From positions 1 to 64,000 of IMG/VR virus record IMGVR_UViG_3300021387_003827: 64,000 nt of DNA, one strand, 5' to 3'. Origin of the DNA: a virus. Lineage: Duplodnaviria; Caudoviricetes. Under the pieces are notes generated by a model. It ran no database searches, was not told the DNA's origin, and was given only the letters and a program-made list of their open reading frames with translations. Positions 5,969 to 39,283 of this stretch are shown one piece after another (positions within the stretch are counted from its first letter, which is position 1; the number at the start of each line of letters is the position of its first letter). The translations under genes and the position numbers were made by a program.

Positions 5969-6310
5969 TCATACTTTTACTCTTATTTCTAGTGCTCGTT
6001 TTGTTCTCTTATTCTCTAGACCAAAACACAGAGAATCATTTTCTAGATAAACGGCATATAACTCTAGGTCTTCTATTTTCCCTATCTTCGGATTATTGGA
6101 TACCTTTTCCTTGATCACTTCCTCTAAATTTCCTAGGGTCTCTTTTATGTTCTTCGACGTGTCCCTAGATATTCCCTTATTAAATACATAATATGTGCTA
6201 TCCCAGTTGGTTGTAATCTCCATTAGATCTGGGGCCTTTCTAGAATAATTGCATTTCTCTACTAGATCAAAAAAGTCGAGAATATTTAATTTCTTTTGAA
6301 AGATTATCAT
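5969..6310 (-). CDS. Hypothetical protein, degenerate leader MIIFQKK
   Basis: ATGA overlap with upstream gene. Confidence 0.7.
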   Translation of the reverse strand: MIIFQKKLNILDFFDLVEKCNYSRKAPDLMEITTNWDSTYYVFNKGISRDTSKNIKETLGNLEEVIKEKVSNNPKIGKIEDLELYAVYLENDSLCFGLENKRTKRALEIRVKV

Positions 6311-6795
6311 AGTCTATTTTGTATTAGTTTCTGGGAGTTTCGGAGATAGTTAATAACTTTATCATTCTCGTCATCCTCCCAGTATCTATTCTTTGTCCAA
6401 TCAATCTCATCATTCTTAAACTCTTTAAGAATTCCTTGCTTTACTTGCTGAAAAGATACTGGCTTTCCGTTTCGATTGTTGTCTATCCAGGTTTTCTTTT
6501 CAGTATCATAAGAAAAATCAATTCTGCCCTGTGGTGATTCTACAACTGGAATTATTTTTGTTTCTGGAGTTATCTCATCTTTTCTTAGTAGAGTATAGTA
6601 ACTCGCATATTCATCACCATCCCCGAGACCCGGATAGATCTTATCCAGCTCTTCCTCAAGCGATTTCAGCTTATTATACTCCTCTTTTGGAAGCCTAGAC
6701 TCTATTTCGTTAATTCTGGCCTGTTCTGTCTTCGTTTTATTAGATTTAAAAAGACCGGAGAGAAAGCTATATGTCTTCTGTCTCTTAATTATCAT
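6307..6795 (-). CDS. Leader-tagged protein, possibly SUKH/SMI1-KNR4-like
   Basis: MIIKRQKTYS; IESRLPKEEY...IIPV...G...SFQQ loosely resembles SUKH (family call weak). Confidence 0.6.
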   Translation of the reverse strand: MIIKRQKTYSFLSGLFKSNKTKTEQARINEIESRLPKEEYNKLKSLEEELDKIYPGLGDGDEYASYYTLLRKDEITPETKIIPVVESPQGRIDFSYDTEKKTWIDNNRNGKPVSFQQVKQGILKEFKNDEIDWTKNRYWEDDENDKVINYLRNSQKLIQNRL

Positions 6796-7586
6796 AGTAT
6801 TGTATTTATCTTATTATTAAACTCCTTGATCATCTCTATTTGCTTGTCGGATAAGGTATCATCAAGCTTTTTGAGATCAACCATCAGGGTTTTCTTGAGA
6901 GATTCAGAATAATCGGGGCTATCTACACCATATTTCCCTGTATTAGGACTATAACAAAGCCAACCATCATCCCCTGCTTCGTTATATGTGGCTAAACAAA
7001 GGGTACTAAATCCATCATCGTTCTCTATATTCCACCAATCTTCTGTAGTTTTTGAGTTAATAGGAATTGGGAAATATGTCTTAAACTCAGGAACTTCATA
7101 CACCTCATCTATTTTCTCTGAATCCATGCTAGAATACCAGAGCTCTATTTTCTTTGACCAGGTGTCCTTATAGAATTTGACATATTTCAAGAATTCGGCG
7201 GGAACAGGTATTTTCTTAGCTAGAGCTTGCCAAGAGGAGTAATTTAGATTCTTTGCAAGTGTCTCATCAAATCCTCTATTGTTTTCTATGGCTTTCTTTA
7301 TTCTCTTAGAGTTTTCCTTATCAACCTTCTCTCTTACCTTTGGATCGTGGTCATATTCCCACTTTGACTTTCCACTATCCCAACCAGACTTTGCTCCAGC
7401 TATGCCACCAATTAAAGCACCTGTCCCAGCAATGCCAGCAGCCAGTTTATATTTTCCAGAAAGTGCGGCTAGTTTCCAGCCAGGCATTACAGCAGCACCA
7501 ATACCTGCTCCATACCCAGCACCTTTAATTGCACCACCAAGAGAAGATGTGAATTTAGAATATGTCTTCTGTCTTAGTATTATCAT
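6792..7586 (-). CDS. Leader-tagged protein: Gly-zipper N-domain plus globular C-domain (possibly SUKH-like)
   Basis: MIILRQKTYS; GAGYGAGIGAA / GIAGTGALIGGIAG; IPVPAEFLKY...GDDGWLCY. Confidence 0.7.
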   Translation of the reverse strand: MIILRQKTYSKFTSSLGGAIKGAGYGAGIGAAVMPGWKLAALSGKYKLAAGIAGTGALIGGIAGAKSGWDSGKSKWEYDHDPKVREKVDKENSKRIKKAIENNRGFDETLAKNLNYSSWQALAKKIPVPAEFLKYVKFYKDTWSKKIELWYSSMDSEKIDEVYEVPEFKTYFPIPINSKTTEDWWNIENDDGFSTLCLATYNEAGDDGWLCYSPNTGKYGVDSPDYSESLKKTLMVDLKKLDDTLSDKQIEMIKEFNNKINTIL

Positions 7587-7730
7587 AGTTTATTGATTTT
7601 TTAATACGGCTTTTCCCAAGGACTGTCACTAAGTTTTGCAAGGTTTCTTTGCCCATTTTATCTAGTCTATCACCAAGTTTTTACCAACTTTGTAAGTTTT
7701 TAGTGACCCCTTCAAAAGAATATATTGTCT

Positions 7731-8234
7731 TTATAGTACCTTCTTCATTGCCGTCAGTCCTCCCCAATAGAAATCCTCGTCGGGCGAACTAATCTGACCA
7801 ACCTCTTTAAATCCAAGTTTTTCGTAGATATGTCTTGCATCTGGTGATATACCCGGTACTTCTAATGTTAGGGTTTTGTATCCTCTTTCTTTGGCAAACT
7901 TTATAACCCACTTTAGAACTTCCTGAGCAAATCCGTGACCTCTATATTTCTCATCAATTTCAATCCACATTACATTTAGTTCTTCTTTGGATATCTCAGT
8001 TAAATCCAGGGCGCCGATATTAGTTTTTCCTTCTAGTATATCATAGTCAGCTAAAGTTTCTAGTGTTCTTATGTTTTTAGAGCCAAATAATTTAGCCAGG
8101 ATTTTTGATATAAACGAGGCAATATGTCTAGTAAACCAGGAATCTTTGACTTTTTCTAGATGTATTCCGCGAAGGTCTATTTCTTCTGGTGCATCAGTTC
8201 TAAATGAATACACTCTTTGACGTTTAATTATCAT
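7731..8234 (-). CDS. Leader-tagged GNAT acetyltransferase
   Basis: MIIKRQRVYS; acetyl-CoA motif IDEKYRGHGFAQ and ARHIYEKLGF. Confidence 0.88.
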   Translation of the reverse strand: MIIKRQRVYSFRTDAPEEIDLRGIHLEKVKDSWFTRHIASFISKILAKLFGSKNIRTLETLADYDILEGKTNIGALDLTEISKEELNVMWIEIDEKYRGHGFAQEVLKWVIKFAKERGYKTLTLEVPGISPDARHIYEKLGFKEVGQISSPDEDFYWGGLTAMKKVL

Positions 8235-8755
8235 TTCTTCTTGGATTTTTTAATTCTTTCTTTAGTGTTAATCTCAGCCCCTAACCTGGCTGCCTTTCTT
8301 TTCTTAATTATCTTTGGGGCCTCTTTAGCTATAACACTAGTCGCACCAAGAACAGCAGCGCCCATAGCAATCTTCTTAGAGTTCTTTCCGAGGCTAGATT
8401 TTATGTTTTGTGGAATTTTTATATCAAGCCCATAGTTTTTAGCATTATTTTCTATAAAATCAGGGGACTTAGAGATAAGATATCCACCCACTCCAGCAAT
8501 AACTCCTCTTTTAGCGGCTTTTCCAACTGGTTTCCCAATATTATCAAGGGTTGCTTCTTTCCCTGCTGCCTTCTTCGCCGCTTTAATAATTTCTTCGTCA
8601 GACTTTCCTTCTTCTGCCGCTTTGTCTGCAGCCTCCTTTCCAACTCTAAAATATTTCTCAGCATCTACCTTACCGTTTCCATCTTGTATCCAGCCAATCC
8701 CTATTCTAGAATCTTTAAGTTTTTCAGAATACGTCTTTTGTATTAGTATTATCAT
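8231..8755 (-). CDS. Leader-tagged basic protein with two hydrophobic segments
   Basis: MIILIQKTYS; GVIAGVGGYLI, IAMGAAVLGATSVIA. Confidence 0.75.
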   Translation of the reverse strand: MIILIQKTYSEKLKDSRIGIGWIQDGNGKVDAEKYFRVGKEAADKAAEEGKSDEEIIKAAKKAAGKEATLDNIGKPVGKAAKRGVIAGVGGYLISKSPDFIENNAKNYGLDIKIPQNIKSSLGKNSKKIAMGAAVLGATSVIAKEAPKIIKKRKAARLGAEINTKERIKKSKKK

Positions 8756-9894
8756 TTCTTTCCTCTCCTTTTCTTTTTCTTTCCCAAGCCCATTTCTTCA
8801 TTAACAAAACGATTAATATCCTTCTGTTTAGGATGCTTAGACGTATCTTCGGGATGATATTTTTTATATAATTTTTCATTAATCATCCCTTCACCAACTT
8901 TAGCTGCAACCATCCCACCAGCCAATCCTGCACTGATTGCTGCATTGCGATTAGATATCTCTCTGTTTCCTTTAGTGAGTATTTCAGCAGCTCCATTACC
9001 AAGAGCATTGGCCAAAACTGCAGTAGAAGAAGCTCTGCTAATGTTTCGGGCTCTTTTCAGTTTTCTTTTATCTTTCTCAAGCTCCCTCTCTTTGTCGGTC
9101 ATCTTGCTTTCTTCCAGCTGCCTCTTTTTATATTTATAGGCTATATTCTTAGCAGCTTTTGATCCTAGAGTAGAAATCGCTGCTCCAGCTACATAACCAT
9201 TAAACGCTTTGCCATTTGATTTCCTAGCGGCTTTTAATAGTTTCTCTGACGCCCCGGCCTTTTTGAGAAGTTTTTGGCCGTAAATAGACGCAGCACCTTC
9301 TGACACTAAAACGGGAACGTATGTTCCGGCTGAGAGATATGGAGCAGCTTTACCTATTTTGGATTCTTCTTCTCCCCTCTCTTCTTTTTTGGCTTTATCA
9401 ATACCAGCCGCAATACTAGAAGATATTCCAGCAACTCCAGCTATATTTTGGTCTAAATATAGTTTATGAGCTATTTTTGGAACTAGGCCTGCTTTTTTGT
9501 CAGCGTGAAAGTGTGCATGCCCTAATTCATGTGCCAAAGTCGAGGCATCCTTATCTGCGACCCTAATAATCTTTTTCTTAAAATCATATGAATCATTTCT
9601 TTTCATGGTATTGGGCATGTGTTTTATCCTTGTCTTAGACTCTTTTCTCAGCTTATCAAAGACTTCTTCACTTTCTTCTTTTATGGCAGGATCTTTTCGT
9701 AGAAGTTTCTTTATTTTCTTTTTAACCCGGCTGTCTCCAGACTTCTCTTTTAATTTCTCTTGAAGTGGAGCAGCAGCGCCTTCTATAAAGTACGGTAATG
9801 TTCCTCCAATAGCTGCCGCCGTTAATACTCCATTTTCAACTTTAGAGCCTTTCTTTTCCTTTTTTGAAAAAGCTCTCTGTCTTAGTATTATCAT
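8752..9894 (-). CDS. Leader-tagged membrane zinc metallopeptidase (HExxH, Zn_peptidase_2-like)
   Basis: MIILRQRAFS; TLAHELGHAHFH with downstream VSEGAAS and GYVAG; several hydrophobic helices. Confidence 0.75.
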   Translation of the reverse strand: MIILRQRAFSKKEKKGSKVENGVLTAAAIGGTLPYFIEGAAAPLQEKLKEKSGDSRVKKKIKKLLRKDPAIKEESEEVFDKLRKESKTRIKHMPNTMKRNDSYDFKKKIIRVADKDASTLAHELGHAHFHADKKAGLVPKIAHKLYLDQNIAGVAGISSSIAAGIDKAKKEERGEEESKIGKAAPYLSAGTYVPVLVSEGAASIYGQKLLKKAGASEKLLKAARKSNGKAFNGYVAGAAISTLGSKAAKNIAYKYKKRQLEESKMTDKERELEKDKRKLKRARNISRASSTAVLANALGNGAAEILTKGNREISNRNAAISAGLAGGMVAAKVGEGMINEKLYKKYHPEDTSKHPKQKDINRFVNEEMGLGKKKKRRGKK

Positions 9895-19225: not shown

Positions 19226-19864
19226 TCAGCTTTTCTTTTTCTTACTGAGTTTCTTTTGACGCTTAGAATCAAGTTTATCCATATACTTTAATGCTTTCTC
19301 ACGATCTTTATATACTTCAATCCTCTCTTCATTTTGCTCTTTATCGTATGGAATAGGGTCCTTTAGGTAGTTTCCTTTCTTATCAACCCTCCAACCAATA
19401 GGGACATAGTCTTTTTCTTTCTTTCTCCTGTCTTTCTTAGAAGATTTCAGATAATCAATAACCTCTTTATCTCCCTTATTCCAGATTTCTTCCATGGTTC
19501 TGACATCCTTTCTCCTGGTTATGCCTTTTCCAATCTGGTTTCCAATAAAGGCGGAGCCGATAACTATTGCTCTTTTCGGATCTTTTCCCGACCCTACTCG
19601 CTTATTATTAATTACTTTGCCAGCAACATATCCAGTACCAAGACCAAGGAGACCGCTTTTGAATTGATTACGCCTAAATCTTTCTCTTCCAGCACTATCA
19701 GTATCATCAAACATTATTTGGGCTTGGGCTCTTTCCCTATCGGATGCTTTTTCTAAGAGTTTGTCACGTTCTTTATTGCGCTCCAGCTCCTCTTTCTTAT
19801 TTTTCTCCCACTCTTCATCTCCAGCTACTCCTGCGCGGAATTCTTTCTGTCTTAATATAATCAT
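19226..19864 (-). CDS. Leader-tagged basic protein with Gly-rich segments
   Basis: MIILRQKEFR; GLLGLGTGYVAG. Confidence 0.75.
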   Translation of the reverse strand: MIILRQKEFRAGVAGDEEWEKNKKEELERNKERDKLLEKASDRERAQAQIMFDDTDSAGRERFRRNQFKSGLLGLGTGYVAGKVINNKRVGSGKDPKRAIVIGSAFIGNQIGKGITRRKDVRTMEEIWNKGDKEVIDYLKSSKKDRRKKEKDYVPIGWRVDKKGNYLKDPIPYDKEQNEERIEVYKDREKALKYMDKLDSKRQKKLSKKKKS

Positions 19865-19877
19865 ATCTTTTTCTAAA

Positions 19878-19943
19878 AACTCTGGGGGAATCTTTAAACC
19901 TATTGCCCCCTCCCCAAAGTCTATATATTTTTTAAAGGGAGCA
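19878..19943 (-). ncRNA. Putative H-type pseudoknot, copy 3
   Basis: S1 UGCUCCCU/AGGGGGCA, S2 GACUUUGGGG/CCCCAGAGUU. Confidence 0.7.
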
Positions 19944-19950
19944 GAGTAAT

Positions 19951-20019
19951 CTATTCTTTATCTTTATTCTTTTTCTTCAGGGCCTTTACACCAGCCACAG
20001 CAGCACCAGTGGCAAGAGT
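19951..20019. repeat. 69-bp direct repeat (68/69) with 21186..21254
   Basis: Both encode TLATGAAVAGVKALKKKNKDKE*. Confidence 0.9.
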
Positions 20020-20487
20020 ACCACCAATTACCCAAGGAGCGGCTTTTTTAACGTTCTTTAGAATAGCCTGTTTTTTAGCATTTTTTCTAATAGCATCCTT
20101 TATTTCTTTATTAGAAATAGATCTTACTGATTCACCAAAAACATCTCCCTGCTGCATTCTTTGATTATTCATTCTAAGAAAGTCTCTATATGCACTAACT
20201 GGATCTTTTGTTGAGTGAAATTCTTGGGAGATTTTTCTACCACCACTACTTAATCCCTCATGAAACGAAATGTGCAGGCCATCCTTTCCAGCACAAATCT
20301 TGCCTCCAGATTTAGTAGTTTTGTATTTTCTTTTTCCAAGAATAAGATCTCTCCCTTCTTTAGTAATTTGGTTGGAGCGTTTGAATTCCCCATCTTGAAT
20401 ATGAAAATCTTTACCCATCGGTCCATCAAATCCGGTCTGGGAAGCATAAACTGAGGTAGCAAAGGTTTTCTGTCTTAGTAATATCAT
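19951..20487 (-). CDS. Leader-tagged tail-anchored protein
   Basis: MILLRQKTFA (M31 of track ORF); AAPWVIGGTLATGAAVAGVKALKKK. Confidence 0.8.
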   Translation of the reverse strand: MILLRQKTFATSVYASQTGFDGPMGKDFHIQDGEFKRSNQITKEGRDLILGKRKYKTTKSGGKICAGKDGLHISFHEGLSSGGRKISQEFHSTKDPVSAYRDFLRMNNQRMQQGDVFGESVRSISNKEIKDAIRKNAKKQAILKNVKKAAPWVIGGTLATGAAVAGVKALKKKNKDKE

Positions 20488-20491
20488 AATC

Positions 20492-21106
20492 TTACTTATT
20501 ATCCTTTTTATTAGCTTTCTTTTTCTTATAGGCTTTAATGCCTGCAGCTGTTGCACCAATAGTCGCAGTTCCACCAATTACCCAAGGAGCAGCCTTCTTT
20601 AGCTTCCTTGTGGCCTTCTTTAGTTTTCGTTGAACTTTTGTTCTTTTGATCTTTTCTTTATAATAATCATCTAGAGAATTTGAAAAATCGTGGCTATCTC
20701 TAAGTGGGCCAGTTTTCCAATCTTCTAGGGCAGCAGCTGCTTCTTCTCTTGATCTGAATCCGGCCCTGCTTCTGGACCTATTATCGCTATTTTCAAGCGC
20801 CGGCTTACTTCTTGCATTAACACTTCTCGCCAGTACCTCTTTTTCTTCTAGACTGATGTTCTTTTGTTCTCTTGGATCAATGGGAGTATATTTTCTTTTT
20901 GCTTGTCTATATCTACGTATAATACTATCCTGTTCTTCTTTTGGAAGATATTTATATTCAGAATTTTTAAGAAAGTCTTCTGGCTCTATTCCCAGTTTTT
21001 TAGCTTGCTCAAGTTCATAAAATTTCTTTCTTAGTTTCTTTCTGGCTCTTTCTTCCAATTTTTTCTCTCCGGCTTCAGAGTATAATCTTTCTCTTAGTAT
21101 AATCAT
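20492..21106 (-). CDS. Leader-tagged tail-anchored protein
   Basis: MIILRERLYSEAG; AAPWVIGGTATIGATAAGIKAYKKK. Confidence 0.8.
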   Translation of the reverse strand: MIILRERLYSEAGEKKLEERARKKLRKKFYELEQAKKLGIEPEDFLKNSEYKYLPKEEQDSIIRRYRQAKRKYTPIDPREQKNISLEEKEVLARSVNARSKPALENSDNRSRSRAGFRSREEAAAALEDWKTGPLRDSHDFSNSLDDYYKEKIKRTKVQRKLKKATRKLKKAAPWVIGGTATIGATAAGIKAYKKKKANKKDNK

Positions 21107-21116
21107 AAAATATCAT

Positions 21117-21182
21117 ATCTACCAGGAAAGTTGTTAAATTATCCTCCCCTCTGGTAGATTTTGTTTTACGGGGAGGAGCAAT
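21117..21182 (-). ncRNA. Putative H-type pseudoknot, copy 4
   Basis: S1 AUUG(C)UCCUCCCC/GGGGAGGAUAAU, S2 AUCUACCAG/CUGGUAGAU. Confidence 0.8.
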
Positions 21183-21185
21183 TAT

Positions 21186-21860
21186 CTATTCTTTATCTTT
21201 ATTCTTTTTCTTCAGGGCCTTTACACCAGCCACAGCAGCACCGGTGGCAAGAGTTCCAGCAGCAATATATGGAGCAGCTTTTTTAATGGCCTTCGCTCTT
21301 TCTAATTTTTTAATACGCGCAAGTCTCTCGGGTGCTTCTCTACTAATTTCCGCCCTCATCTGTCTCTTCGCTTTTTGGGCTTCCCATGCTTCAACTTTTC
21401 GGTCAAAATCTGATGCTGCTTTTTTACGCTCAGCTTCACGAATTTCAAAATTTTCTTTAATATTTCGTTGTAATTCTTCCCATTCCTTCTTTCTCTTATA
21501 GTCACTTAATGCCTCTGATCTAGAATTTTTAAAATCTTTTAAATTATCTGCCTTAATTTTTGCCTTTTCCTCAAGAATATCTTTTGGTCCACTCCATTGC
21601 TGTTCAAATCTAGCCAGACTCAGTTTTCCGTCTTCTTTTGTTGCAGCATCCTGGATTTTCTTCAGCTTTTCAGGATTAAACATAGTCCTGAGTTCCCGCA
21701 GACTATTGATGTGTTTTTCTTGTCCGATAATTTCAGAATTTTTTAAATTTTCGGCCTGCTGTTCTATCTGCCACTTCCTCTTGTTGGCTTTCTTCTTGGC
21801 TCTTTCTTCCAATTTCTTCTTCCCAGCTTCAGAGTATAATCTTTCTCTTAGTATAATCAT
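21186..21860 (-). CDS. Leader-tagged tail-anchored coiled-coil protein
   Basis: MIILRERLYSEAG; AAPYIAAGTLATGAAVAGVKALKKK. Confidence 0.8.
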   Translation of the reverse strand: MIILRERLYSEAGKKKLEERAKKKANKRKWQIEQQAENLKNSEIIGQEKHINSLRELRTMFNPEKLKKIQDAATKEDGKLSLARFEQQWSGPKDILEEKAKIKADNLKDFKNSRSEALSDYKRKKEWEELQRNIKENFEIREAERKKAASDFDRKVEAWEAQKAKRQMRAEISREAPERLARIKKLERAKAIKKAAPYIAAGTLATGAAVAGVKALKKKNKDKE

Positions 21861-21872
21861 ATCCAATTTTAT

Positions 21873-21939
21873 CTATGGAGGACTTGATTAAAGATATACC
21901 CCTCTCCCCCATAGTATTGATTTAATAGGGGATATATCT
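21873..21939 (-). ncRNA. Putative H-type pseudoknot, copy 5
   Basis: S1 AGAUAUA(U)CCCCU/AGGGGUAUAUCU, S2 CUAUGGGGG/CCUCCAUAG. Confidence 0.75.
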
Positions 21940-21978
21940 ATAAAAACATTAGAACTAATCGCTCTTTATCATATCAGA

Positions 21979-22449
21979 TTATGCTGCCTTATCCTTCTTT
22001 TTCTTTGCAGCATAACCAATCCCAGCTGCAGTACCAAGAACAACAGCACCGGTAGCAACAGGATGTTTCTTTACTATGTCTACTCCCTTCTTGCCAAGTT
22101 TCCAAGCCTTCTTTGCAGCATCATTAAAGGCAGCTCTTTTCTTGGCACCATCAAAAGCCTTCTCCACTTTATCTGGATTTATATTCTTTCTATCGATTGC
22201 TTTATGAACGAGTGACATATTTCCAGCCTCACGAGCAGAAGCAACAGAAGCTTTATCTGCAATCTGTAAAGTCTTCTTGGCAGCATTTAATTCTTCTGTG
22301 GTCATTGCTTCCTTAGCCAATTTCTCTGCTTCTTTGGCCTTATTGGCAGCCCGGTTAGCGTGCATTTCAGCATTCTGGGCTTTTCTTTCCATTTTTCTTC
22401 TCTGCTTTCTTTCACGTGCAGAAAATAATTCTTCTCTAAGTATAATCAT
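21979..22449 (-). CDS. Leader-tagged tail-anchored Ala/Lys-rich protein
   Basis: MIILREELFS; HPVATGAVVLGTAAGIGYAAKKKK. Confidence 0.8.
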   Translation of the reverse strand: MIILREELFSARERKQRRKMERKAQNAEMHANRAANKAKEAEKLAKEAMTTEELNAAKKTLQIADKASVASAREAGNMSLVHKAIDRKNINPDKVEKAFDGAKKRAAFNDAAKKAWKLGKKGVDIVKKHPVATGAVVLGTAAGIGYAAKKKKDKAA

Positions 22450-22715
22450 CGTAAAATTCTCCTTAGTTTCATTTCATTCCCTGTCTTCCGGAGTTCTGCC
22501 TGCTTTGCCCGAATATCTCTTTTTGATATATTCCCAATTATGTTTGAAGTAGCTTTCTCTAGACCGGAAGTAGTTTTGTCAATTTCCTTTATATCCTTCT
22601 GTATACCTTTATCTGATCTTCTCCTTACTTTCGCCCAATAAGAAGAAACCGGATCGAGGGAAGAATAGTCAGTACGTTTTGTAGAAGAATAAAGGTTTTG
22701 TCGTTTTAATATCAT
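22446..22715 (-). CDS. Leader-tagged small basic protein
   Basis: MILKRQNLYS; ATGA overlaps. Confidence 0.7.
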   Translation of the reverse strand: MILKRQNLYSSTKRTDYSSLDPVSSYWAKVRRRSDKGIQKDIKEIDKTTSGLEKATSNIIGNISKRDIRAKQAELRKTGNEMKLRRILR

Positions 22716-23077
22716 TTCTCTTTCTTTATTAATTTAAGTCCAAGAGTGAAATAGAAGACATCATCGCAGCAGTCATTCTCTGCTTTTATCATCCAAGCAT
22801 CAACTCCGCTTTCTTCGAGTCGTTTTATAAATTTACCAAGAATATTAAAGTAGTGGGACCATTTTCCAGGGCCATTCCATCCACCAGAGAGTTCAACCGT
22901 AAAAGTTCCATATTCATCGGTTTTAAATTCTAGTGCTCCTCCTAATGTTTGTAATTTACTCCCTAATACAGTTTTCCCACCGTCGGTTATAAACTCTGGC
23001 TCCTTTAATGTGTTCTCGAAGATTTCTTTTATTCTTTTTTCACCCTCCGGAGAGAATAGTTTCCTTCGTAGTTTCAT
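22712..23077 (-). CDS. Leader-tagged hypothetical protein
   Basis: MKLRRKLFS. Confidence 0.7.
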   Translation of the reverse strand: MKLRRKLFSPEGEKRIKEIFENTLKEPEFITDGGKTVLGSKLQTLGGALEFKTDEYGTFTVELSGGWNGPGKWSHYFNILGKFIKRLEESGVDAWMIKAENDCCDDVFYFTLGLKLIKKEK

Positions 23078-23158
23078 GGGTTTATTGAGTTTTGAGTTTA
23101 GGGCCCTAGGTATGGTTCTTAGGGCCCATCTTTCTCTTGTCGTCCTCTACTGTTTCTT

Positions 23159-23806
23159 TTACTCAGCTTTGCCTTCCCATTTATCTTTAAATTCCTGTGG
23201 AGTCATTTTCCCAAGAGCTACTTTAGAATAATCTGCACTAATTTCTCTATTTGTCTTATTTCTTGGGTCTTTTCCGTGCTTCTTCATCTCTTTTTCATGC
23301 ATTTTTCCTACTAAATGCCCGCCGAGATATCCAATACCAGCTCCAGCAGCAGCGCCGATAGCAGCATTCCTAGGATTTACCCTACCATAAGGATCGAAAG
23401 CATTAACAGAGGCACCCTGTAGTGCGCCGGCAGCAGTTAGGACTTTCTTTATAGTCTTTTTATCTCTATCTATCACTCTATTCTCAGCCTCTTCGTCTCC
23501 TTCATCAATGCTCTTAATAACATCTTCATTAGCATCTTTATCCATTCTAGCTCGAGCCATTATATACCGTCTATCATTCTTGTCAAGGCCGGCTTTCTTT
23601 ATAGACTTTTTAAGCTCTCTTCGCTCTTTTCTTGTTGTAGTTTTTTCTGAAAACTCTTTCTGTGCATAATCATAACCGTCCTCGATTCCACTGTAATAAA
23701 CTTCTTCCAGAATAGCATCGAGTTCTTCATCGCCAGTACTAAATAATTTCTGGCTCTCTTCGGTCTGAGAAAAACACTTCTCAGCGAAATCTTTTCCACT
23801 TATCAT
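23159..23806 (-). CDS. Protein with acidic pro-region carrying three KxFS sites, then a Gly-zipper domain
   Basis: EKCFS, QKLFS, QKEFS; AAIGAAAGAGIGYLGG. Confidence 0.75.
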   Translation of the reverse strand: MISGKDFAEKCFSQTEESQKLFSTGDEELDAILEEVYYSGIEDGYDYAQKEFSEKTTTRKERRELKKSIKKAGLDKNDRRYIMARARMDKDANEDVIKSIDEGDEEAENRVIDRDKKTIKKVLTAAGALQGASVNAFDPYGRVNPRNAAIGAAAGAGIGYLGGHLVGKMHEKEMKKHGKDPRNKTNREISADYSKVALGKMTPQEFKDKWEGKAE

Positions 23807-23822
23807 AATTATAAAACATTCA

Positions 23823-23895
23823 TCTACCAGAAAAAGTTATTAAATCACCATCCTTCCCCCCCCCCTGGTAGAATATTTTAATGGGAGAAGGCATG
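23823..23895 (-). ncRNA. Putative H-type pseudoknot, copy 6
   Basis: S1 CAU(G)CCUUCUCCC/GGGGGAAGGAUG, S2 UCUACCAG/CUGGUAGA; G10 tract at the junction. Confidence 0.75.
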
Positions 23896-23900
23896 AATCT

Positions 23901-24119
23901 TTATTTTATCTTCTGTATAAATTTATGAGGCTTATTTCCGGCCAGATTTTTATACAATGACATAAATCTCTTACCTTCTTTCTCTCCACCACGAGCTATA
24001 TGTTTTTCTAAAGCTAACTTGGCATCGGTAAGATTATGTTTTGGTATAGAGATTTTATATTTACCTATTCTGGCTATTTGAATTCCACTATAGGTCTTCT
24101 GTTTTCTCTTTAGTATCAT
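23901..24119 (-). CDS. Leader-tagged small basic protein
   Basis: MILKRKQKTYS. Confidence 0.7.
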   Translation of the reverse strand: MILKRKQKTYSGIQIARIGKYKISIPKHNLTDAKLALEKHIARGGEKEGKRFMSLYKNLAGNKPHKFIQKIK

Positions 24120-24169
24120 TTTCTTTCTTTATTTCCCTTCCACAAAGTCTTCTAGTTTCAGAAGCATTT

Positions 24170-24460
24170 TTAAAGCATGTTCTCTGTGTGGTCAAGACGC
24201 CATAGGTACTTTTCGGGTAATCCAGCGCGTTTTCCATGTTTTCTAGAAATTATTTGCTGACCGCGGCTATCATAGAAATTGGTTAGAGGCTTGATTTCTG
24301 GTTTATTAGATTTTCTAAACTTTCGCAATCTGTCAAATTCATCAAGTTTCTGACGAGTATTTCCTACTTTAATTTCTTTAGGAATTTGCGAAATTTCCCA
24401 CAGCCGTTTAGCTGCTTTATTAGCTTTATTTCCAAACTCTTTCTGTCGTAGTATTATCAT
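24170..24460 (-). CDS. Leader-tagged small basic protein
   Basis: MIILRQKEFG. Confidence 0.7.
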   Translation of the reverse strand: MIILRQKEFGNKANKAAKRLWEISQIPKEIKVGNTRQKLDEFDRLRKFRKSNKPEIKPLTNFYDSRGQQIISRKHGKRAGLPEKYLWRLDHTENML

Positions 24461-32416: not shown

Positions 32417-33480
32417 AAGAAGACAAAAATTTCTTGGGGGATCTCATTAATGCAATATCCCCGTCAGGTTATGAAAAACTTGGAACCGATGTATTTGATA
32501 AGTGGGTGGGAGAAACTACCCGGGCCAGACACATTCTCCGCGACAGAAACTATAACTCATTATGGTCTTTGGGGAACGGAGACATAAAAGTTCTTCTCAC
32601 CGCACATATAGATGAGATCTCAGGCATAGTCCAAAGCATTGACGAGTCTGGTTTAGTGTCGATTATAAATGTCGGTGGAATGGATAGAAAGGTAGTTTAT
32701 GGAAGTAGTGTATGTATTCTAAAGGATGATGACTCCTCTATAAACGGATACGTATGTCATAAACCAATCCATCTCCAGGAAAACGAAGAATATGAAAAAT
32801 CTGACAAATTCAAGGATCTGAAAATAGATCTTGGTTGTGAAAGTAGAGAGGAGGTTCTCGCTCTTGGTGTTCATCCTGGTCTCAAGGTGGTGAATAGAAG
32901 AGATTACGACATGGACTTTGGAAATAACAGACTTCGTGGAAATGCTCTTGACGATAAGAGTTGCTGCTATATTCTTGGTCAGGTTGGAAAGAAGTTGTCA
33001 TCCTTAGACCCAGAGCTTCCGATATTCAAGAAATATACATTCATCTTTGGTGTAGTTGGGTGCGAAGAAACTGGACTTGAGAATGCTAGAATAGTCGCTC
33101 AAAATATAAATCCTGACATATCTATAGATCTCGATGTTACCTTTGGAGGAAAGAGAGATGGTCTATGTCCCGAGGAAGATGGAGAGGCGGAACTTGGAAA
33201 AGGCTGTGTTATAATGTATGGCCCGGATAAGAATCCTTCAGTAACCAAGATTCTTCGGAGAGTGGCTGAAGAAAAGAAGATCCCATATCAAGAACAAGCT
33301 TCCCGGGCCGGAGGTACTAACACAGCATCCTTTAAGAATTTCTCTCTAAATTGTGCTTCTGCTCTTATTTCTATCCCCGACGCTAATATGCATCAGGTAA
33401 ATGAGATTGAAGACTGGAGAGATATAGATTCTGCCATTTCTCTACTCTATGAAACCCTTATATGTGGATACTTGGAGTAA
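32413..33480 (+). CDS. M42-family aminopeptidase
   Basis: PSGYE, AHIDE, ALDDK, EETG, DVT, GGT, MH metal-ligand motifs. Confidence 0.9.
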   Translation: MKEDKNFLGDLINAISPSGYEKLGTDVFDKWVGETTRARHILRDRNYNSLWSLGNGDIKVLLTAHIDEISGIVQSIDESGLVSIINVGGMDRKVVYGSSVCILKDDDSSINGYVCHKPIHLQENEEYEKSDKFKDLKIDLGCESREEVLALGVHPGLKVVNRRDYDMDFGNNRLRGNALDDKSCCYILGQVGKKLSSLDPELPIFKKYTFIFGVVGCEETGLENARIVAQNINPDISIDLDVTFGGKRDGLCPEEDGEAELGKGCVIMYGPDKNPSVTKILRRVAEEKKIPYQEQASRAGGTNTASFKNFSLNCASALISIPDANMHQVNEIEDWRDIDSAISLLYETLICGYLE

Positions 33481-33696
33481 ATGATAAGGGTTAGAATATA
33501 TAAATCACATCTTATCTGGAAAAGAAGAGGATGGTTTGGTAAGTGGAAAGATGTTAAAGTATATAAAGAGGGTTTAGATCCAGAATTATATATAGTCGAG
33601 AACACTAAAGAAATAGAAGAAAAGGTACGAAATATAATGACTTGGGAAGATCTTAATAGTTTCGTTGGACCAGAATATAATATCAAAAAGATATGA
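33481..33696 (+). CDS. Hypothetical protein
   Basis: Abuts and overlaps neighbours. Confidence 0.6.
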   Translation: MIRVRIYKSHLIWKRRGWFGKWKDVKVYKEGLDPELYIVENTKEIEEKVRNIMTWEDLNSFVGPEYNIKKI

Positions 33697-34268
33697 AGAA
33701 TTTTCAAATTACAGACAAAGAAACAGGAAAAGTATATTGGATTTCTAGAGCTATGGCAGTTGCTGGAGTCATTTATGCGAAAGATAACTCTGGAAACTTA
33801 CACTTCCTCGTTGAGAAGAGAGGACCAGGTTGCCCAGATTATGTTGGATATAATGCACTTTGTTGTGGCTACTTAGATTGGGATGAGACCTTGGAAGAGG
33901 CTATGATTCGTGAGGCTTGGGAAGAAATGGGATTGAAAATAGATCCCACCCGAGATTCTATAGTTCCATTCTTCATCCAAGATAATCCTAAAGATAACTC
34001 TAGACAAAACGTTACCGTCCGATTTATGATTGAAGTTCCCTATGATTATATCGTGGAGGGACTCAAGAATGGAAGTATTAACGGAGATACAAAATCTAGA
34101 GGAGGCGAAGAGGGCGAGATTGAAGAAATTAATCTTATCTCTTTGGATGATCTTAAAGAACATAAGTGGGCTTGGAATCACGATGAAGTAATTAGATCTG
34201 TATCTGACATTCTCAACGATAAAGGAGGCGAGAAAGTTTGGAAATTAAAAAAGAAAAGAGGGAATTAA
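33693..34268 (+). CDS. Nudix hydrolase
   Basis: Nudix box GYLDWDETLEEAMIREAWEEMGL; AWNH. Confidence 0.92.
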   Translation: MKNFQITDKETGKVYWISRAMAVAGVIYAKDNSGNLHFLVEKRGPGCPDYVGYNALCCGYLDWDETLEEAMIREAWEEMGLKIDPTRDSIVPFFIQDNPKDNSRQNVTVRFMIEVPYDYIVEGLKNGSINGDTKSRGGEEGEIEEINLISLDDLKEHKWAWNHDEVIRSVSDILNDKGGEKVWKLKKKRGN

Positions 34269-35321: not shown

Positions 35322-35344
35322 TAAGTGGACCAGGATCTCAAACT

Positions 35345-35466: not shown

Positions 35467-35499
35467 ATATATGAAATAATACTTTAATTTTGATATAGT

Positions 35500-37203
35500 A
35501 TGAAAAGAAACGAGAACCTGATACAAAAAATCTTCGGAGCTACATCCGTCGGAAAAGGTGGAATGCCTCTTCGCTCCAATATATATGGAACAAGAGGATA
35601 TACCCCTATCGGACAGACTGGCTCTAGAATTTTTGATAATGAAAGAAACTCTCCGCTACTTGGAAACTATGCTGCCTCTAATACCTTAAGTGGATATTAC
35701 GAGAAGCTTAGTGAACTTAGGGGATATCAACTATTAGATATCTCAAAATTAGCGGTAAACTTCTTCTCTGACTATATCATAAACTTTCTTGCAGATGATT
35801 CAAACGGCTATCAGATTGCTTCTATCCTTAATGATGAGGGTGAAATAGATGAAGTCGTTTCCGAAAGAATTAATGATATTCTGTCCAAAGATATTCGTAT
35901 TTTTGACTATATCAAGGATCATATTCAAGATTATGTATTCTATGGAGACTATTATTCCATGCTTCTTGCCTCTAAAGACGATGAAGGACATACAAAGTTT
36001 AGAGTCGAAGAACTTTATGACCCAATTGCAGTAGTCGTTAAGAAAAAGAGGGGCAAAGATGGTGAGATGGATGAGGTGTTTCTAGCCAAAGGAGATGACG
36101 GTAGTGTATATGAGATTCCAAAAGAAGAAGTTATATACTTAGCCACCAATAATTTGAGATTAAAGAATGATATCTCGGGGAATTGGAAAGAAACCGCAAA
36201 ACCTAAATCTATAAAAGATCAGAAAAATCGCGAAAAAGTTCTCCTTAAAGAATCATTTTCTGCATCTGAACCACTATTTTACTCTCTAATCCTGAAAGTA
36301 AAGGAGCTCGTAGTAAAGGAGCTTCTTGTTTCTCTTATTAGTCTTAGAGATTTGTCTTCGGTTCAGATATTCCTTCTTCAATTTGATAAGTCCGTTCCCC
36401 TTGAAACTGCAGAAGAATTGTGTTCAAAGACTACAAAATTAGCTAATGCAACTAATGAAGTAGCCTCTTTCCTTACTTCTCAGTTTGATGTTGTGAGCTT
36501 TATTGAGAATACTTTGGTTCAGTCCGCTAAATTTGTTCCAGATTATAATTCGACAATTGGCGGAAAAAACGCTATGGTCCCTCTTGATAAGCTCTCTGAT
36601 AAGCTCTTAGACATTATGCAATCTATAGATACTTGTAGGAATAACGTCTTAGGGCCTCTTGGATTACCTTCTACCATTGTCGATTCTACGTCTGGCTCAA
36701 AGTGGCAAGTTCTCCAACAGTCTGAACGGGCTAATTCAAGAGTAGCATTCTTTATGGCTGGTATTAAGGACTCTGTCACTAGTCTTGTATGTAATATCTA
36801 TAAGATTATTTATGGAGAAGAATTAAATCCAAGTTGTGTAAAACTTCATATTGCAGAAAAAACGTCCGTCGAGTATAATAATCAAATTAACCAGTCTGAG
36901 TCTATAAATGGCCTCTTAAACGGTCTTACTCAGGTTATAAGTAATGCTCTCCAGACGTTAGAACAGGCTTCACCGCTGATTGATGCTAGGGCTTATCTTT
37001 CGTATATTCATAACTTACTTAAAGATATAGACCCCAACACCGAATCAATCATAACTAAGGATACAATGAATACTTATCTTAAGACCTTAGTCGCGAAGCT
37101 TAGAAATCAATATGAACAGCTAGGAATGAATCCAGAGGATATAATGTCTCTATTCCCAGATCCAGAGGAAGAAGAACAATCATCTAAACTAGAAAAATTA
37201 TGA
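35500..37203 (+). CDS. Portal protein (T4 gp20-like)
   Basis: First gene of head cluster; 567 aa, helical; YVFYGDYY and LGLPS motifs; QKIFG site near N-terminus. Confidence 0.7.
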   Translation: MKRNENLIQKIFGATSVGKGGMPLRSNIYGTRGYTPIGQTGSRIFDNERNSPLLGNYAASNTLSGYYEKLSELRGYQLLDISKLAVNFFSDYIINFLADDSNGYQIASILNDEGEIDEVVSERINDILSKDIRIFDYIKDHIQDYVFYGDYYSMLLASKDDEGHTKFRVEELYDPIAVVVKKKRGKDGEMDEVFLAKGDDGSVYEIPKEEVIYLATNNLRLKNDISGNWKETAKPKSIKDQKNREKVLLKESFSASEPLFYSLILKVKELVVKELLVSLISLRDLSSVQIFLLQFDKSVPLETAEELCSKTTKLANATNEVASFLTSQFDVVSFIENTLVQSAKFVPDYNSTIGGKNAMVPLDKLSDKLLDIMQSIDTCRNNVLGPLGLPSTIVDSTSGSKWQVLQQSERANSRVAFFMAGIKDSVTSLVCNIYKIIYGEELNPSCVKLHIAEKTSVEYNNQINQSESINGLLNGLTQVISNALQTLEQASPLIDARAYLSYIHNLLKDIDPNTESIITKDTMNTYLKTLVAKLRNQYEQLGMNPEDIMSLFPDPEEEEQSSKLEKL

Positions 37204-37499
37204 TTATACTAAGAGATAAATCATTCTCCGATAAGAAAGAAGATATCGGAAGAAAAGCCAGGAATACTGGTATTATAGCGGCTGGAACTGGTGCTGGGAT
37301 GTATGCACTTGGGAAACTTGGCGAGAAGGTAGGCAGAGGAAAAAGTAAGTATGCCGAAAGTCTAGCCAAGAAAGGACCTAAAGCTAAAACTGCCGGACTA
37401 ATTCTTGCTGGTTCTGGAGCTGTTCTTAGTGCCGCCGGTGAAATAAAACGTAGGAGAGATAAGAAAAAGAGCCATGATAATTCTAAGAAAGAAGACTAA
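37200..37499 (+). CDS. Leader-tagged Gly-zipper protein
   Basis: MIILRDKSFS. Confidence 0.78.
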   Translation: MIILRDKSFSDKKEDIGRKARNTGIIAAGTGAGMYALGKLGEKVGRGKSKYAESLAKKGPKAKTAGLILAGSGAVLSAAGEIKRRRDKKKSHDNSKKED

Positions 37500-37800
37500 G
37501 TCATTTTCTTTCGAGGAACAGGAGCAGATTACATCAAGGGAGCTTCAAATAGAGCAACTGAGGATGCAAAGGCAAATTCTGGAGACTCAAAAGCTCAAGG
37601 AAAAACTTAGGGCACAAGAGTCACAGCAGCGCTTAAAACAGCTCTCCCAGGCTCAAAAAGTTGAACAGAAGAGAGATATGGAGGAAGACAAAAATCAGAT
37701 TAAGGTCAGAAGGATCGAAGATGAAAATAATTCCCCCAAGAATGTAAGTCTCTATAAAACAAGATCTAAAGTAATCACTCCTATTCCGATGAGAGGATAA
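37474..37800 (+). CDS. Leader-tagged Gln-rich coiled-coil protein
   Basis: MIILRKKTKSFS. Confidence 0.75.
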   Translation: MIILRKKTKSFSFEEQEQITSRELQIEQLRMQRQILETQKLKEKLRAQESQQRLKQLSQAQKVEQKRDMEEDKNQIKVRRIEDENNSPKNVSLYKTRSKVITPIPMRG

Positions 37801-37804
37801 TATT

Positions 37805-37939
37805 ATGAATGAAGAATTAAAAGAAAAGACGTTCGTGGAAGGATGTGAGAATGCTCCTAGCGAACTTTCTGAAAAGACATATAATCCATTACATAGTAGC
37901 GATGAAGAACTTTTTACGAAAAATTTTCTCCTGGGTTAG
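37805..37939 (+). CDS. 44-aa acidic ORF not in the track (possible prohead core peptide)
   Basis: MNEELKEKTFVEGCENAPSELSEKTYNPLHSSDEELFTKNFLLG*; fills the gap between genes. Confidence 0.55.
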   Translation: MNEELKEKTFVEGCENAPSELSEKTYNPLHSSDEELFTKNFLLG

Positions 37940-38198
37940 AAGTCAGACATGGATTCCAGAGTGGTTAAGAGAGTCTAATCGAGAGAAGCACTTAGTTCTC
38001 GGAATTCCTTGTGGGTTCCTATCATTAATCTTTACCTTAGGCTGTGCATGTGGTCTTGAGACTAAAGACGTACAATATAATAATTGGGACTTTAAAGCTT
38101 GGGACTGGAAAGATTTTGGTGCTACAATGATTGGCGGCTTTATTGGCTTCCTCATTCGCTCTATTATCATACTTGTAATACTTTTAATCGTACATTAA
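37902..38198 (+). CDS. Small membrane protein (holin candidate)
   Basis: REKHL...E.KD...WDWKDFGATMIGG; 2-3 TM segments; start at M20 of track ORF. Confidence 0.6.
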   Translation: MKNFLRKIFSWVRSQTWIPEWLRESNREKHLVLGIPCGFLSLIFTLGCACGLETKDVQYNNWDFKAWDWKDFGATMIGGFIGFLIRSIIILVILLIVH

Positions 38199-38201
38199 TA
38201 T

Positions 38202-38873
38202 ATGGAAAGCAATCCCTTTGGCTCTGATGATTTAAGAAATAAAATCCTTGCCAAAGAAGGAAGGCTGGATATAGATAGTCAGAGTCAAGATAACGACGAT
38301 CTTATGGGGATTATATCTTCTGCCCCGGTTATTCCGAATAGCGCAAAGAATGTAATCCTGGACTCAAAAGCAATGGCCATAGCAAACCGGAAAGAAAAAG
38401 AAGGTGAAATTGCTGTGGCTATAACAGATATGCTTACGGACCTCAATGAACAGTATGACCTAGATTTGGATGGAATTAATATAAATAATTTCACACAAAC
38501 TCTAGCTAATGTCATTGATCCTAAGAAACGTGAGATACTTGAACTCTATGTCTCTGAAATAAGTAAATCTATAAAACCCGTCCTCTACTTGCATATTCTC
38601 CAAAGACTTATGTTAGTTATGGATAATGTTCTTAGTCCGGAAGTTCTGTTCTCAAATGAATTCTCAGCCCCTGACAAGGTTCTACTTCTTGAAAAGATTG
38701 TAGCTATGGCTGGAGAATTATCAGACGCCCTGGAAGAAATGAAAGTGGAGAATTCTGATGCCGTTCTTAAGAAGATAGCAGAAACAAAGAACGATGAGAA
38801 CTTAGAATCACCCGAGTCTAAGAAGATAATAGAGGAATTTATGTCAATGTTTAAAAAAGATAAAGGACTATGA
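38202..38873 (+). CDS. Hypothetical acidic helical protein
   Basis: Long ORF in head operon. Confidence 0.7.
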   Translation: MESNPFGSDDLRNKILAKEGRLDIDSQSQDNDDLMGIISSAPVIPNSAKNVILDSKAMAIANRKEKEGEIAVAITDMLTDLNEQYDLDLDGININNFTQTLANVIDPKKREILELYVSEISKSIKPVLYLHILQRLMLVMDNVLSPEVLFSNEFSAPDKVLLLEKIVAMAGELSDALEEMKVENSDAVLKKIAETKNDENLESPESKKIIEEFMSMFKKDKGL

Positions 38874-39283
38874 TTGTATATAGAAGTAAACTATTTACAG
38901 ATATAAACGAAGACATAGTAACGAGATATCTTGGTGTTCTGGGAGGTTTTATCTTTAAGGCCAAATCTTTACATTGGGCAGCCTCTGGAAAAGATATACA
39001 TGAATATCTTGATGATTTCTGGGAGATTATTTATAATTTCCAAGACACCGTAGCTGAGTGTTGGATGGGAATAAATGGCCAGCTTGGTCCGGATGATGTG
39101 ACCTTTGTTGCCGCCGAATCCCAAAACCCAAAGGATTTCATTAAAGAAGTTGAAGATAAGACCACTGATTTTTATGAACTTCTTCCACAAGATGACCCTC
39201 GATTTAAGGGACTTATCAGCGAAGTGGAGAATTTCATGCACGAGATAGAAAAATATAAGTATCTCTTTGGTCTTTGTATGTAA
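38870..39283 (+). CDS. Leader-tagged Dps/ferritin-like protein
   Basis: MIVYRSKLFT; KSLHW...IHEYLDDF...DTVAE ferroxidase-like pattern; KYKYL end. Confidence 0.75.
   Translation: MIVYRSKLFTDINEDIVTRYLGVLGGFIFKAKSLHWAASGKDIHEYLDDFWEIIYNFQDTVAECWMGINGQLGPDDVTFVAAESQNPKDFIKEVEDKTTDFYELLPQDDPRFKGLISEVENFMHEIEKYKYLFGLCM

Follow-up and report, generated by a model that had tools for sequence, protein, structure and literature searches.

A short N-terminal leader shared by unrelated late proteins of a myovirus may be a T4-style head-loading tag for a variable effector set

The stretch of DNA analysed here, which we call the window, is the first 64 kb (64,000 nucleotides) of the 182,986-bp viral record IMGVR_UViG_3300021387_003827, which has direct terminal repeats. 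PHROG matches to sheath and tube genes identify the phage as a myovirus. Its G+C content is about 37%. The best matches of its large terminase (15603-17504) in our phage collection reach 25-27% identity, hence the phage is distant from all phages there. Within the window, many genes begin with the same short leader peptide, although the proteins behind it are unrelated. We will refer to this leader as the tag. A preliminary description of the window had singled out seven open reading frames (ORFs): two GNATs, an ADP-ribosyltransferase (ART)-like protein, a HELGH peptidase, a Dps-like protein and two loosely SUKH-like proteins. All seven are present. Most of the enzyme and domain calls stand: both GNATs, the modelled ART-fold protein and the Dps-like protein show the fold and the catalytic residues expected of them, and the zincin shows the catalytic residues with a putative fold. 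The SUKH calls are weak leads, and the tag on one of the GNATs is doubtful. Below, genes are named by their first coordinate (Table 1).

The leader has the consensus M-I-I-L/K-R-Q-K-x-F/Y-S, and a strict pattern search finds it in 21 ORFs. These 21 ORFs were used to build a scoring matrix, with which we scanned all ATG-anchored ORFs of at least 60 amino acids (aa) at a threshold of 8 bits. In the genome 24 genes reach this threshold, all of them between 5.3 and 56.6 kb, the structural region. The other 119 kb of the genome contain no match, and neither does any of 20 codon shuffles. Since 21 of the 24 matches had gone into the matrix, their recovery is circular; the independent evidence consists of the three further matches and the empty shuffles. 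The leader occurs far more often than expected by chance. A looser pattern adds shorter or variant leaders (MKLKLYS, MKIKLFS, MKLRRKLFS, MTTYKIKRFG), for a total of about 36 tagged or tag-like genes.

The leader is conserved as a peptide. Its codons for Ile, Leu, Arg, Gln, Lys and Ser differ synonymously among genes, which argues that selection acts on the peptide. When the profile of the 6792 family (27 sequences) is aligned with that of the 6307 family (7 sequences) using hhalign, the alignment covers residues 1-9, the leader, and nothing else (probability 92.6%, E-value 4.4e-7). Four cargo families retain the leader in 35 of 40, 25 of 29 (the 8752 family), 26 of 27 (the 6792 family) and 5 of 7 aligned members. 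Several of the apparent losses are visibly variant leaders or truncated starts. The leader persists in relatives whose cargo domains are down to 28-40% identical, and it is borne by four unlike folds or families: GNAT, ART, zincin and ferritin-like. As in T4-type systems, a single short N-terminal leader is thus common to unrelated proteins.

The tagged proteins have further properties in common. Of the 36 tagged or tag-like proteins, 26 have a hydrophobic, Gly-rich, membrane-like segment, in many cases with a Lys-rich tail behind it, and 30 have an isoelectric point of at least 8.2. The segments and tails might bind DNA inside the head or, once ejected, insert into a membrane. In the literature we found no description of the leader or of this phage group; the leader's own letters were not searched for.

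Table 1. Tagged, tag-like and head-core features of the window.
Feature	Position	Strand	Leader, tag score or end motif	Remarks
Tagged array, nine genes	5386..11450	-	24.7-28.6 bits	eight abutting or overlapping genes (5386-10421) plus 10893-11450
Tagged 162-aa protein	6307..6795	-		invariant GDGDEY motif; SUKH likeness a weak lead
Tagged 264-aa protein	6792..7586	-		glycine-zipper helical hairpin (~11-112), conserved C-terminal domain (~117-264)
Tagged GNAT, 167 aa, RimI-like	7731..8234	-	MIIKRQRVYS	PF00583
Tagged HExxH+Glu metallopeptidase-like protein, 380 aa	8752..9894	-		hydrophobic Gly-rich segments, Lys-rich tail
Tagged acidic globular protein, 166 aa	15023..15523	-	MILLRNKSFS; 20.6 bits	adjoins large terminase
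Second array, tagged small basic proteins	19226..24460	-		starts 19226, 19951, 20492, 21186, 21979, 22446, 22712, 23901, 24170
Predicted ART-fold protein, 256 aa	24457..25227	-	MKLKLYS (short)	hydrophobic flanking segments, Lys/Arg tail
Small GNAT, 129 aa	25852..26241	-	MILKRKGYKE (atypical, leader-like start)	PF00583; phrog_21214 acetyltransferase
Two small tagged proteins	37200..37800	+		immediately after portal gene; tag scan
Dps-like mini-ferritin, 137 aa	38870..39283	+	MIVYRSKLFT (leader-like)	head-core operon, between portal and candidate protease
Candidate protease	39519-40814	+	K/R-x-F/Y-S x5	head core
Two scaffold-like acidic proteins	40804-41448, 41464-43611	+	K/R-x-F/Y-S x6, x11	head core
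Major capsid protein	43637-45082	+	K/R-x-F/Y-S x2 (residues 36 and 59)	head core
Tagged genes in neck/tail block	46946..56551	+	17.7-28.6 bits	46946, 53821, 54351, 54955, 56186

Gene 7731 encodes a tagged GNAT, as had been described. It matches PF00583 with an E-value of 2.2e-10 (41.3 bits against a cut-off of 20.7). Its best NCBIfam match, TIGR01575 (rimI, E-value 7.5e-11), is under that model's cut-off, and GNATs in the PDB match with E-values down to 2e-6 over a region that spans the acetyl-CoA loop RGHGFA. All five full-length metagenome relatives (67-93% identity) retain the leader; among the matches listed, no relative lies in a viral contig, and metagenome contigs supplied them. Acetyltransferases encoded by phages of Arthrobacter, Gordonia and Streptomyces share about 45% identity with the protein. 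In the one actinophage record examined, that of phage Truckee, the GNAT gene lies between the terminase and the portal.

Gene 25852 encodes a GNAT as well (PF00583, E-value 1.5e-10, 41.8 bits against the same cut-off of 20.7). Its eight PDB matches at E-values of 0.01 or less all carry the molecule name acetyltransferase or N-acetyltransferase. The degenerate tag that had been ascribed to it did not fare as well: its start scores below the 8-bit threshold and the small residue after the aromatic one is missing. The sole relative we found, on contig L011, starts with MIVKRKQYRE and is positioned after an array of tagged ORFs. Judged by these letters, a leader on 25852 is doubtful. GNATs bind the pyrophosphate of acetyl-CoA through the motif R/Q-x-x-G-x-G/A, which reads RGHGFA in 7731 and RGQGYG in 25852, and the same stretch of solved GNATs aligns with it. 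Both proteins are closest to RimI. Solo RimI-like GNATs among the late structural genes of mycobacteriophages have been interpreted as deployed from the capsid (PMC5512222).

The peptidase reading of 8752 holds up across its family. In 29 aligned sequences H122, E123, G125, H126 and E199 are invariant, and H143 is present in at least 90%. E199, which sits in the stretch P-x-L-V-S-E-x-x-A-S, is a candidate third metal ligand. Nine of the 29 relatives match PF04298 (Zn_peptidase_2) at E-values of 0.01 or less (best 2.8e-7). The window's copy is not among them; it has a sub-threshold match to M78 only (E-value 0.0066). Searching the PDB with the family profile gave a single chance-level metalloproteinase match, on the HExxH stretch. 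We read 8752 as a putative divergent gluzincin whose nearest Pfam family is PF04298.

Gene 24457 had been described as an ART-like protein with hydrophobic ends. Single-sequence searches found nothing in Pfam, PHROG, the PDB or NCBIfam and no relative in viral contigs. An alignment-based scan found 66 relatives; the largest contig that carries one measures 383 kb. In 40 aligned sequences G44, H50, I60, G64, T77, Y95 and N155-P156-E157 are invariant. We modelled the protein with AlphaFold from an alignment of 40 relatives; the model has a predicted local distance difference test (pLDDT) score of 81.6 and is confident for residues 33-238. In this model H50 ends the strand 45-53 and Y95 lies within the strand 94-97. 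The hydrophobic segments are found at residues ~17 and ~229.

The model resembles ARTs almost exclusively. An exhaustive structure aligner matches it to Tpt1/KptA (9ld3_A, Z 7.7, root-mean-square deviation 3.1 over 87 residues, 31% identity), to DarT (7omu, Z 6.8 over 126 residues) and to PltA (Z 6.7), and 15 chains reach a Z of at least 5. A single Z of such size can be chance. We accept the ART fold because the match list is uniform: by title, nearly all of the 50 matches listed are ARTs, ART-fold NAD toxins or Tpt1/KptA proteins. Two further proteins among them, 2jqn and 2aua, are of unknown function. The best Foldseek rows are PltA, pertussis S1, CARDS toxin and KptA, with E-values of 0.012 and weaker. 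When the family profile is compared to the PDB, all six matches are Tpt1/KptA proteins, on the motif YH-x-T...IL-x-x-GL that they have in common with the 24457 family (E-values 0.33-0.62). PF01885 is weakly matched by 5 of the 40 relatives (best E-value 0.019) and PARP by one, while the window's copy does not match PF01885. Unlike Tpt1/KptA, 24457 has no Tpt1 N-terminal lobe.

A modelled ART fold with the invariant triad His50, Tyr95 and Glu157 places 24457 in the ADP-ribosyltransferase superfamily, as a predicted enzyme of a new His-Tyr-Glu family nearest to Tpt1/KptA and DarT. We rejected an assignment to the Arg-Ser-Glu type of T4 Alt, ModA and ModB. The residue at the Arg position, R48, is Leu in several relatives, and in the second motif, where Ser-x-Ser would be required, only Y95 is invariant. 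The family is also not detectably the His-Tyr-Asp ART family of polyvalent proteins, and no toxin-ART family of Pfam was matched. Another tagged protein, of 269 aa, adjoins the GNAT gene in close relatives (L024:731-1540 and L026:1884-2693) and is not in the window's genome. Near its start it carries LFHHYTTPNAIPGI, which resembles another His-type ART motif; it has no Pfam match.

Gene 38870 differs from the cargo genes above in its location, the head-core operon. Its tag scores 15.8 bits. The likeness to Dps is real but distant: Dps2 of D. radiodurans matches with an E-value of 0.0015 and NCBIfam Dps with 0.0025, phrog_858 matches as well, and the scores are below the curated cut-offs (28 bits against 34.6 for DUF5856, 17.9 bits against 114 for NCBIfam Dps). 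In E. coli Dps the ferroxidase pattern is H...H-x3-D-x10-D-x3-E. This spacing is found in 38870 (H35, H44, D48, D59, E63); in the alignment with Dps2 all of these residues but D48 are identical. The 'putative DpsA' genes of 49 crAss-type phage records share 38-48% identity with the protein. These matches agree with each other, and we retain the earlier call of a Dps-like protein; what is new is its leader-like start and its position in the head-core operon. Exact peptide patterns found no relative in viral contigs, and we found no paper that pairs crAss001 with DpsA. Gut phages carry Dps-like genes, which have been interpreted as helpers under oxidative stress (Benler et al. 2021, PMC8008677).

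A contig of a related giant phage encodes a tagged 314-aa protein (L005:4129-5073) with a weak match to DUF2383 (E-value 1.6e-4, under the cut-off), a family that we take to belong to the ferritin-like clan. It is possibly another ferritin-like cargo protein. Two tagged ART paralogues lie on this contig too.

The end of the leader recurs elsewhere in the head core. The motif K/R-x-F/Y-S has a density of 0.312 per 100 aa in the window's genes compared to 0.092 in the rest of the genome. It is repeated in the scaffold-like proteins and in the N-terminus of the capsid protein, as in T4-type capsid targeting, where scaffold proteins and the capsid propeptide contain the motif that ends the leader; cleavage at this motif is predicted.

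For 6307 and 6792, which had been called loosely SUKH-like, we find weak structural leads only. Neither protein matches a SUKH family of Pfam even at an E-value of 10. For 6307, eight proteins reach an E-value of 0.001 or less among 1.84 billion representatives, the query counted; of the other seven, one repeat protein was set aside as spurious. The five nearest neighbours of its low-confidence Atlas model (pLDDT 0.59) have template modelling (TM) scores of 0.39-0.44. Three of them are clusters annotated as SMI1/KNR4, with TM scores of 0.41-0.44, and all five are below the bar for naming a fold.

The evidence for 6792 is of a similar kind. Its model, from 27 aligned relatives, has a pLDDT of 86, and the N-terminal hairpin resembles membrane hairpins of the SlyB, TIM23 and TraT type (Z 6.0-7.1). 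The C-terminal domain aligns with Syd (3ffv_B, Z 4.9 over 107 residues), which we take to be a SUKH protein; HPF1 (Z 4.9) and noise rows are tied with it. Two of the 27 relatives weakly match PF09346 (best E-value 0.049). Other searches were uninformative: the family profile retrieved from the PDB only prion protein and other chance matches to the Gly/Ala-rich stretch, Foldseek with the model gave nothing under an E-value of 2.2, the N-terminal hairpin dominated the exhaustive structure alignment, and the Atlas neighbours of residues 113-264 came from a poor Atlas model. The notion that 6307 and 6792 are homologous domains was dropped, because hhalign aligns the leader alone. A SUKH fold in either protein is a lead suggested by the models.

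Comparison with relatives indicates that cargo and leader are exchanged. A complete 167-kb phage genome (G002) contains the ART module at the end of an 882-aa multi-domain protein, preceded by a different leader, DKIAMYEEGIYKAA. The module has the same Gly/Ala-rich segment before it and a glycine-zipper and basic tail after it. This leader or linker motif, DK(I/V)A-x-YE-x-x-IYKEA, occurs in eight copies in G002, four of them N-terminal and four inside long proteins including an SNF2 helicase, and has no match in 10 shuffles. The presence of the ART module in both genomes means that the same warhead is found behind two unrelated leaders, once as a lone gene and once within a polyvalent-type protein.

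We rejected G002 as a relative with the MIILRQK-type tag, because this pattern is at background there (6 matches versus 0-4 in shuffles). It has neither the GNAT nor the Dps-like gene. By eye, the 882-aa protein contains HAD-like and ParB-like (DGHHR) stretches, with no Pfam match. The motif region L009:6202-13332 corresponds to ~49-56 kb of G002.

Close relatives differ in their arrays. Ten tagged genes neighbour GNAT copies that are 92-93% identical to that of the window (67% in one case). Seven of these ten have no match in the 183-kb genome at an E-value of 1e-3 or less; the remaining three are an orthologue of 6792, an ART paralogue (31%) and a distant relative of 6307. Pfam searches with eight tagged ORFs (L023-L026) and 11 leader-bearing ORFs (L004, L005, L011) found only the GNAT and the weak DUF2383 match. 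Taken at the level of sequence, the leader-only profile alignment, the retention of the leader across families and the ART behind another leader support a modular build of tag plus warhead.

Most tagged genes of the window belong to arrays. The first array includes the peptidase, GNAT 7731 and both SUKH candidates, and most of its proteins are basic and combine a hydrophobic, Gly-rich segment with a Lys tail. Two untagged ORFs interrupt it, one of 113 aa (5969-6310) inside the run of eight genes and a small one (10615-10821) in the gap. In the second array 20492 and 21186 are clear paralogues whose first 30 bases are identical, and 23159-23806 (minus strand) has three K/R-x-F/Y-S sites within its first 53 residues. 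The acidic protein 15023 has no match in Pfam, PHROG or NCBIfam. Sheath and tube genes lie near the tagged genes of the neck/tail block. A leader sub-type, MIEF(K/I)(E/Q)K-x-F-S/T, is confined to three genes of that block (46946-47518 and 54351-56184, plus strand) and may mark a different destination in the particle.

Several other genes in or next to the tagged blocks deserve mention. The ORF 29543-30445 (minus strand) has an N-terminal domain of ~175 aa, an internal MKRRKLFS and then a glycine-zipper, Lys-rich tail; in L011 its N-terminal domain is a gene of its own with a canonical leader (L011:3225-3731). Two readings fit this ORF: a fusion of two parts that is cut internally, or a pair of genes. 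Another HExxH protein (HEGIH; 30923-31420, minus strand; phrog_15610 'protease', E-value 3.4e-14) is encoded at the start of the minus-strand block. It lacks a canonical leader, and KLFFS is found near a possible internal start. Three small untagged ORFs on the minus strand (5170-5352, 10615-10821, 11910-12128) border tagged sub-arrays. The first two are clear paralogues with the common stretch GR(R/K)EQYKYF-x-EHP-x-E-x-EDQ, which contains a K-x-F-S/C site near the C-terminus. Large HNH/homing-endonuclease-like genes (12221-13765 and 17512-19125, minus strand; phrog_559 and phrog_7140) flank the large terminase within the tagged block, one immediately upstream of it and the other ~1.8 kb downstream. 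Between the two structural blocks, on the opposite strand, lie an untagged M42-family aminopeptidase (PF05343, E-value 1.7e-56) and a NUDIX hydrolase (32413-34268, plus strand).

To explain these arrays, we propose that the leader is a T4-style head-loading tag on a variable set of effectors that are delivered into the host. We consider this probable, with substantial room for doubt. The proposal builds on the observed domain identities, conserved catalytic residues, leader modularity, restriction to the structural region, end motif in scaffold and capsid proteins, and cassette turnover. The leader would be a short address-and-cut peptide on many unrelated late proteins. It would build them into the prohead core, where the head protease would trim them at K/R-x-F/Y-S. 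The trimmed cargo would stay in the DNA-filled head and leave it with the DNA at infection. This cargo would include the RimI-like GNAT, the PF04298-related HExxH+Glu metallopeptidase, the His-Tyr-Glu ART-fold protein and the Dps-like mini-ferritin, besides numerous small basic proteins that have glycine-zipper hairpins and lysine tails. Once inside, the enzymes may modify host proteins or nucleic acids ahead of any phage gene expression. The rapid turnover of the array between relatives is what cargo in an arms race would be expected to show.

The preliminary description had spoken of a pre-made host-takeover or anti-defence kit. The enzyme folds, the modular build and the analogy to T4 in the literature support this in part. 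We judge the interpretation to be reasonable and unproven: packaging, cleavage, ejection and every target are inferred only.

A number of observations weigh against head loading and delivery. The T4 gp21 family PF03420 finds nothing in the genome at an E-value of 1 or less, and the candidate protease has no sequence match in the PDB. Five tagged genes lie in the neck/tail block, and the leader may therefore mark virion or assembly proteins generally instead of ejected cargo. The membrane-like segments in 26 of 36 proteins would equally suit membrane proteins that never enter the head. A folded Dps dodecamer would not pass the tail tube; because it is unlikely to be ejected, 38870 may act inside the head or in the cytoplasm. 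The crAss copy we examined (cr85_1), unlike 38870, has no M-I-x-x-R-x-K start and lies among tRNA and regulator genes. Finally, the window's ART copy bears the shortened leader only, and the scores for its fold are middling though consistent (best Z 7.7, Foldseek E-values of at least 0.012).

Some of these points fit a different role for the leader, that of a propeptide which the protease removes from virion and assembly proteins. The enzymes would then act in the prohead or virion and not on the host: the zincin as an accessory maturation peptidase, the GNATs on internal proteins or new N-termini, and the Dps-like protein as a guard or compactor of the packaged DNA. The tagged genes of the neck/tail block are expected here, and so is a Dps-like gene between the portal and the protease candidate. 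RimI, to which both GNATs are closest, is an N-terminal acetyltransferase, and zincin domains have been suggested to possibly process proteins in the phage head (PMC5512222). Yet an ART-fold protein has no obvious substrate inside the head, and T4 Alt is an ART that is packaged and injected (PMC5512222). The quick turnover of cassettes between close relatives also suits host-directed arms-race cargo better. Overall, we regard action confined to the particle as unlikely, though well worth considering. Alternatively, the tagged proteins could be late membrane proteins for lysis control, superinfection exclusion or envelope remodelling, and the leader a signal for membrane insertion or stability. 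PF04298 proteins are membrane-associated, an endolysin gene lies in the same strand block, and both the Gly-rich segments with their Lys-rich tails and the membrane-type hairpin of the 6792 model agree with such a function. The leader itself is short, charged and unlike any signal peptide, however, and its end motif is concentrated in scaffold-like proteins and at the N-terminus of the capsid protein. Furthermore, the soluble acidic GNAT 7731, 6307, 15023 and the Dps-like protein bear the leader without a membrane segment beyond their fold. A membrane signal seems improbable to us.

The common start might also have no peptide role at all and reflect the recent duplication of one family or a nucleotide-level start element. 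Neighbours such as 20492 and 21186 are indeed paralogues. But GNAT, ART, zincin and ferritin-like families all carry the leader, which is kept when cargo domains have diverged to 28-40% identity. The profile comparison that aligns the leader alone and the synonymous codon variation largely refute this reading, and we give it hardly any credence. A bolder extension of head loading treats the head as a delivery capsule for swappable, membrane-anchoring effectors, with the Dps-like protein as encapsulin-like core cargo. The separate tagged genes would correspond to a polyvalent protein that has been split up. Glycine-zipper hairpins and a lysine tail would flank each warhead (ART, zincin and others); the hairpins would hold it on the DNA in the head and later, where the DNA enters, anchor it in the inner membrane of the host. 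Lineage-specific leaders would have been exchanged as the head protease altered its cutting rule. This extension is speculative, and we think it rather unlikely in full.

The T4 cleavage site ends in Glu. SPN3US and phiKZ lack a single uniform short tag among their propeptides, which are likewise cut at a motif with Glu at its end. The leader described here has a different sequence from that of T4, and its end motif is K/R-x-Phe/Tyr-Ser, not a Glu-ending site. At least 24 genes are tagged compared to a handful in T4, the ART is of the His-Tyr-Glu type unlike the Arg-Ser-Glu type of Alt, and most of the cargo has glycine-zipper hydrophobic segments and Lys tails. Furthermore, the system is known here from genes alone. 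The likeness lies in the organisation. T-even internal proteins are diverse, counter host defences and have only a capsid targeting sequence in common, and in IPI, IPII and IPIII a leader of ~10 residues is likewise the sole common feature (PMC3012670). Both heads have a scaffold core, an ART is among the cargo (Alt in T4), and the cargo is polymorphic between relatives (PMC3012670, PMC5512222). In SPN3US and phiKZ, a T4-type prohead protease cuts the propeptides of many head-internal proteins, which enter the host (PMC5694885, PMC7411985, PMC10052503). We found no sequence relationship to the ejection proteins of these phages.

The cargo itself resembles the domains of polyvalent proteins (Iyer, Burroughs, Anand, de Souza and Aravind 2017). 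Among the effector domains that phages are predicted to package, ARTs, RimI-like GNATs and zincins are the most frequent (PMC5512222), and the same three, the zincin with its HExxH+Glu arrangement, are found here. As in polyvalent proteins, the genes lie among late and structural genes and delivery with the DNA is predicted (PMC5512222). The 882-aa protein of G002 with its C-terminal ART module resembles a polyvalent protein. In our phage, in contrast, the domains are encoded as separate small proteins, each behind a leader of its own, and not as parts of a giant polypeptide, and the 24457 family has an invariant Glu where the polyvalent ARTs described there are of the His-Tyr-Asp type (Tox-ART-HYD2; PMC5512222). 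By analogy, then, the leader system appears to be a new variant of the T4 head-loading principle, with packaging inferred.

If this is true, the packaged protein set of an entire group of uncultured giant phages could be read directly from sequence, dozens of proteins per genome. Most of these proteins would be without a known family and would turn over between near-identical phages. They would supply candidate proteins for counter-defence and for the takeover of the host early in infection, among them a new His-Tyr-Glu ART family that has passed from one leader system to another. The leader could also be attached to foreign proteins in order to load them into such capsids. Finally, it would mean that the head-loading principle of T4 survives a change in the cutting motif of the protease.

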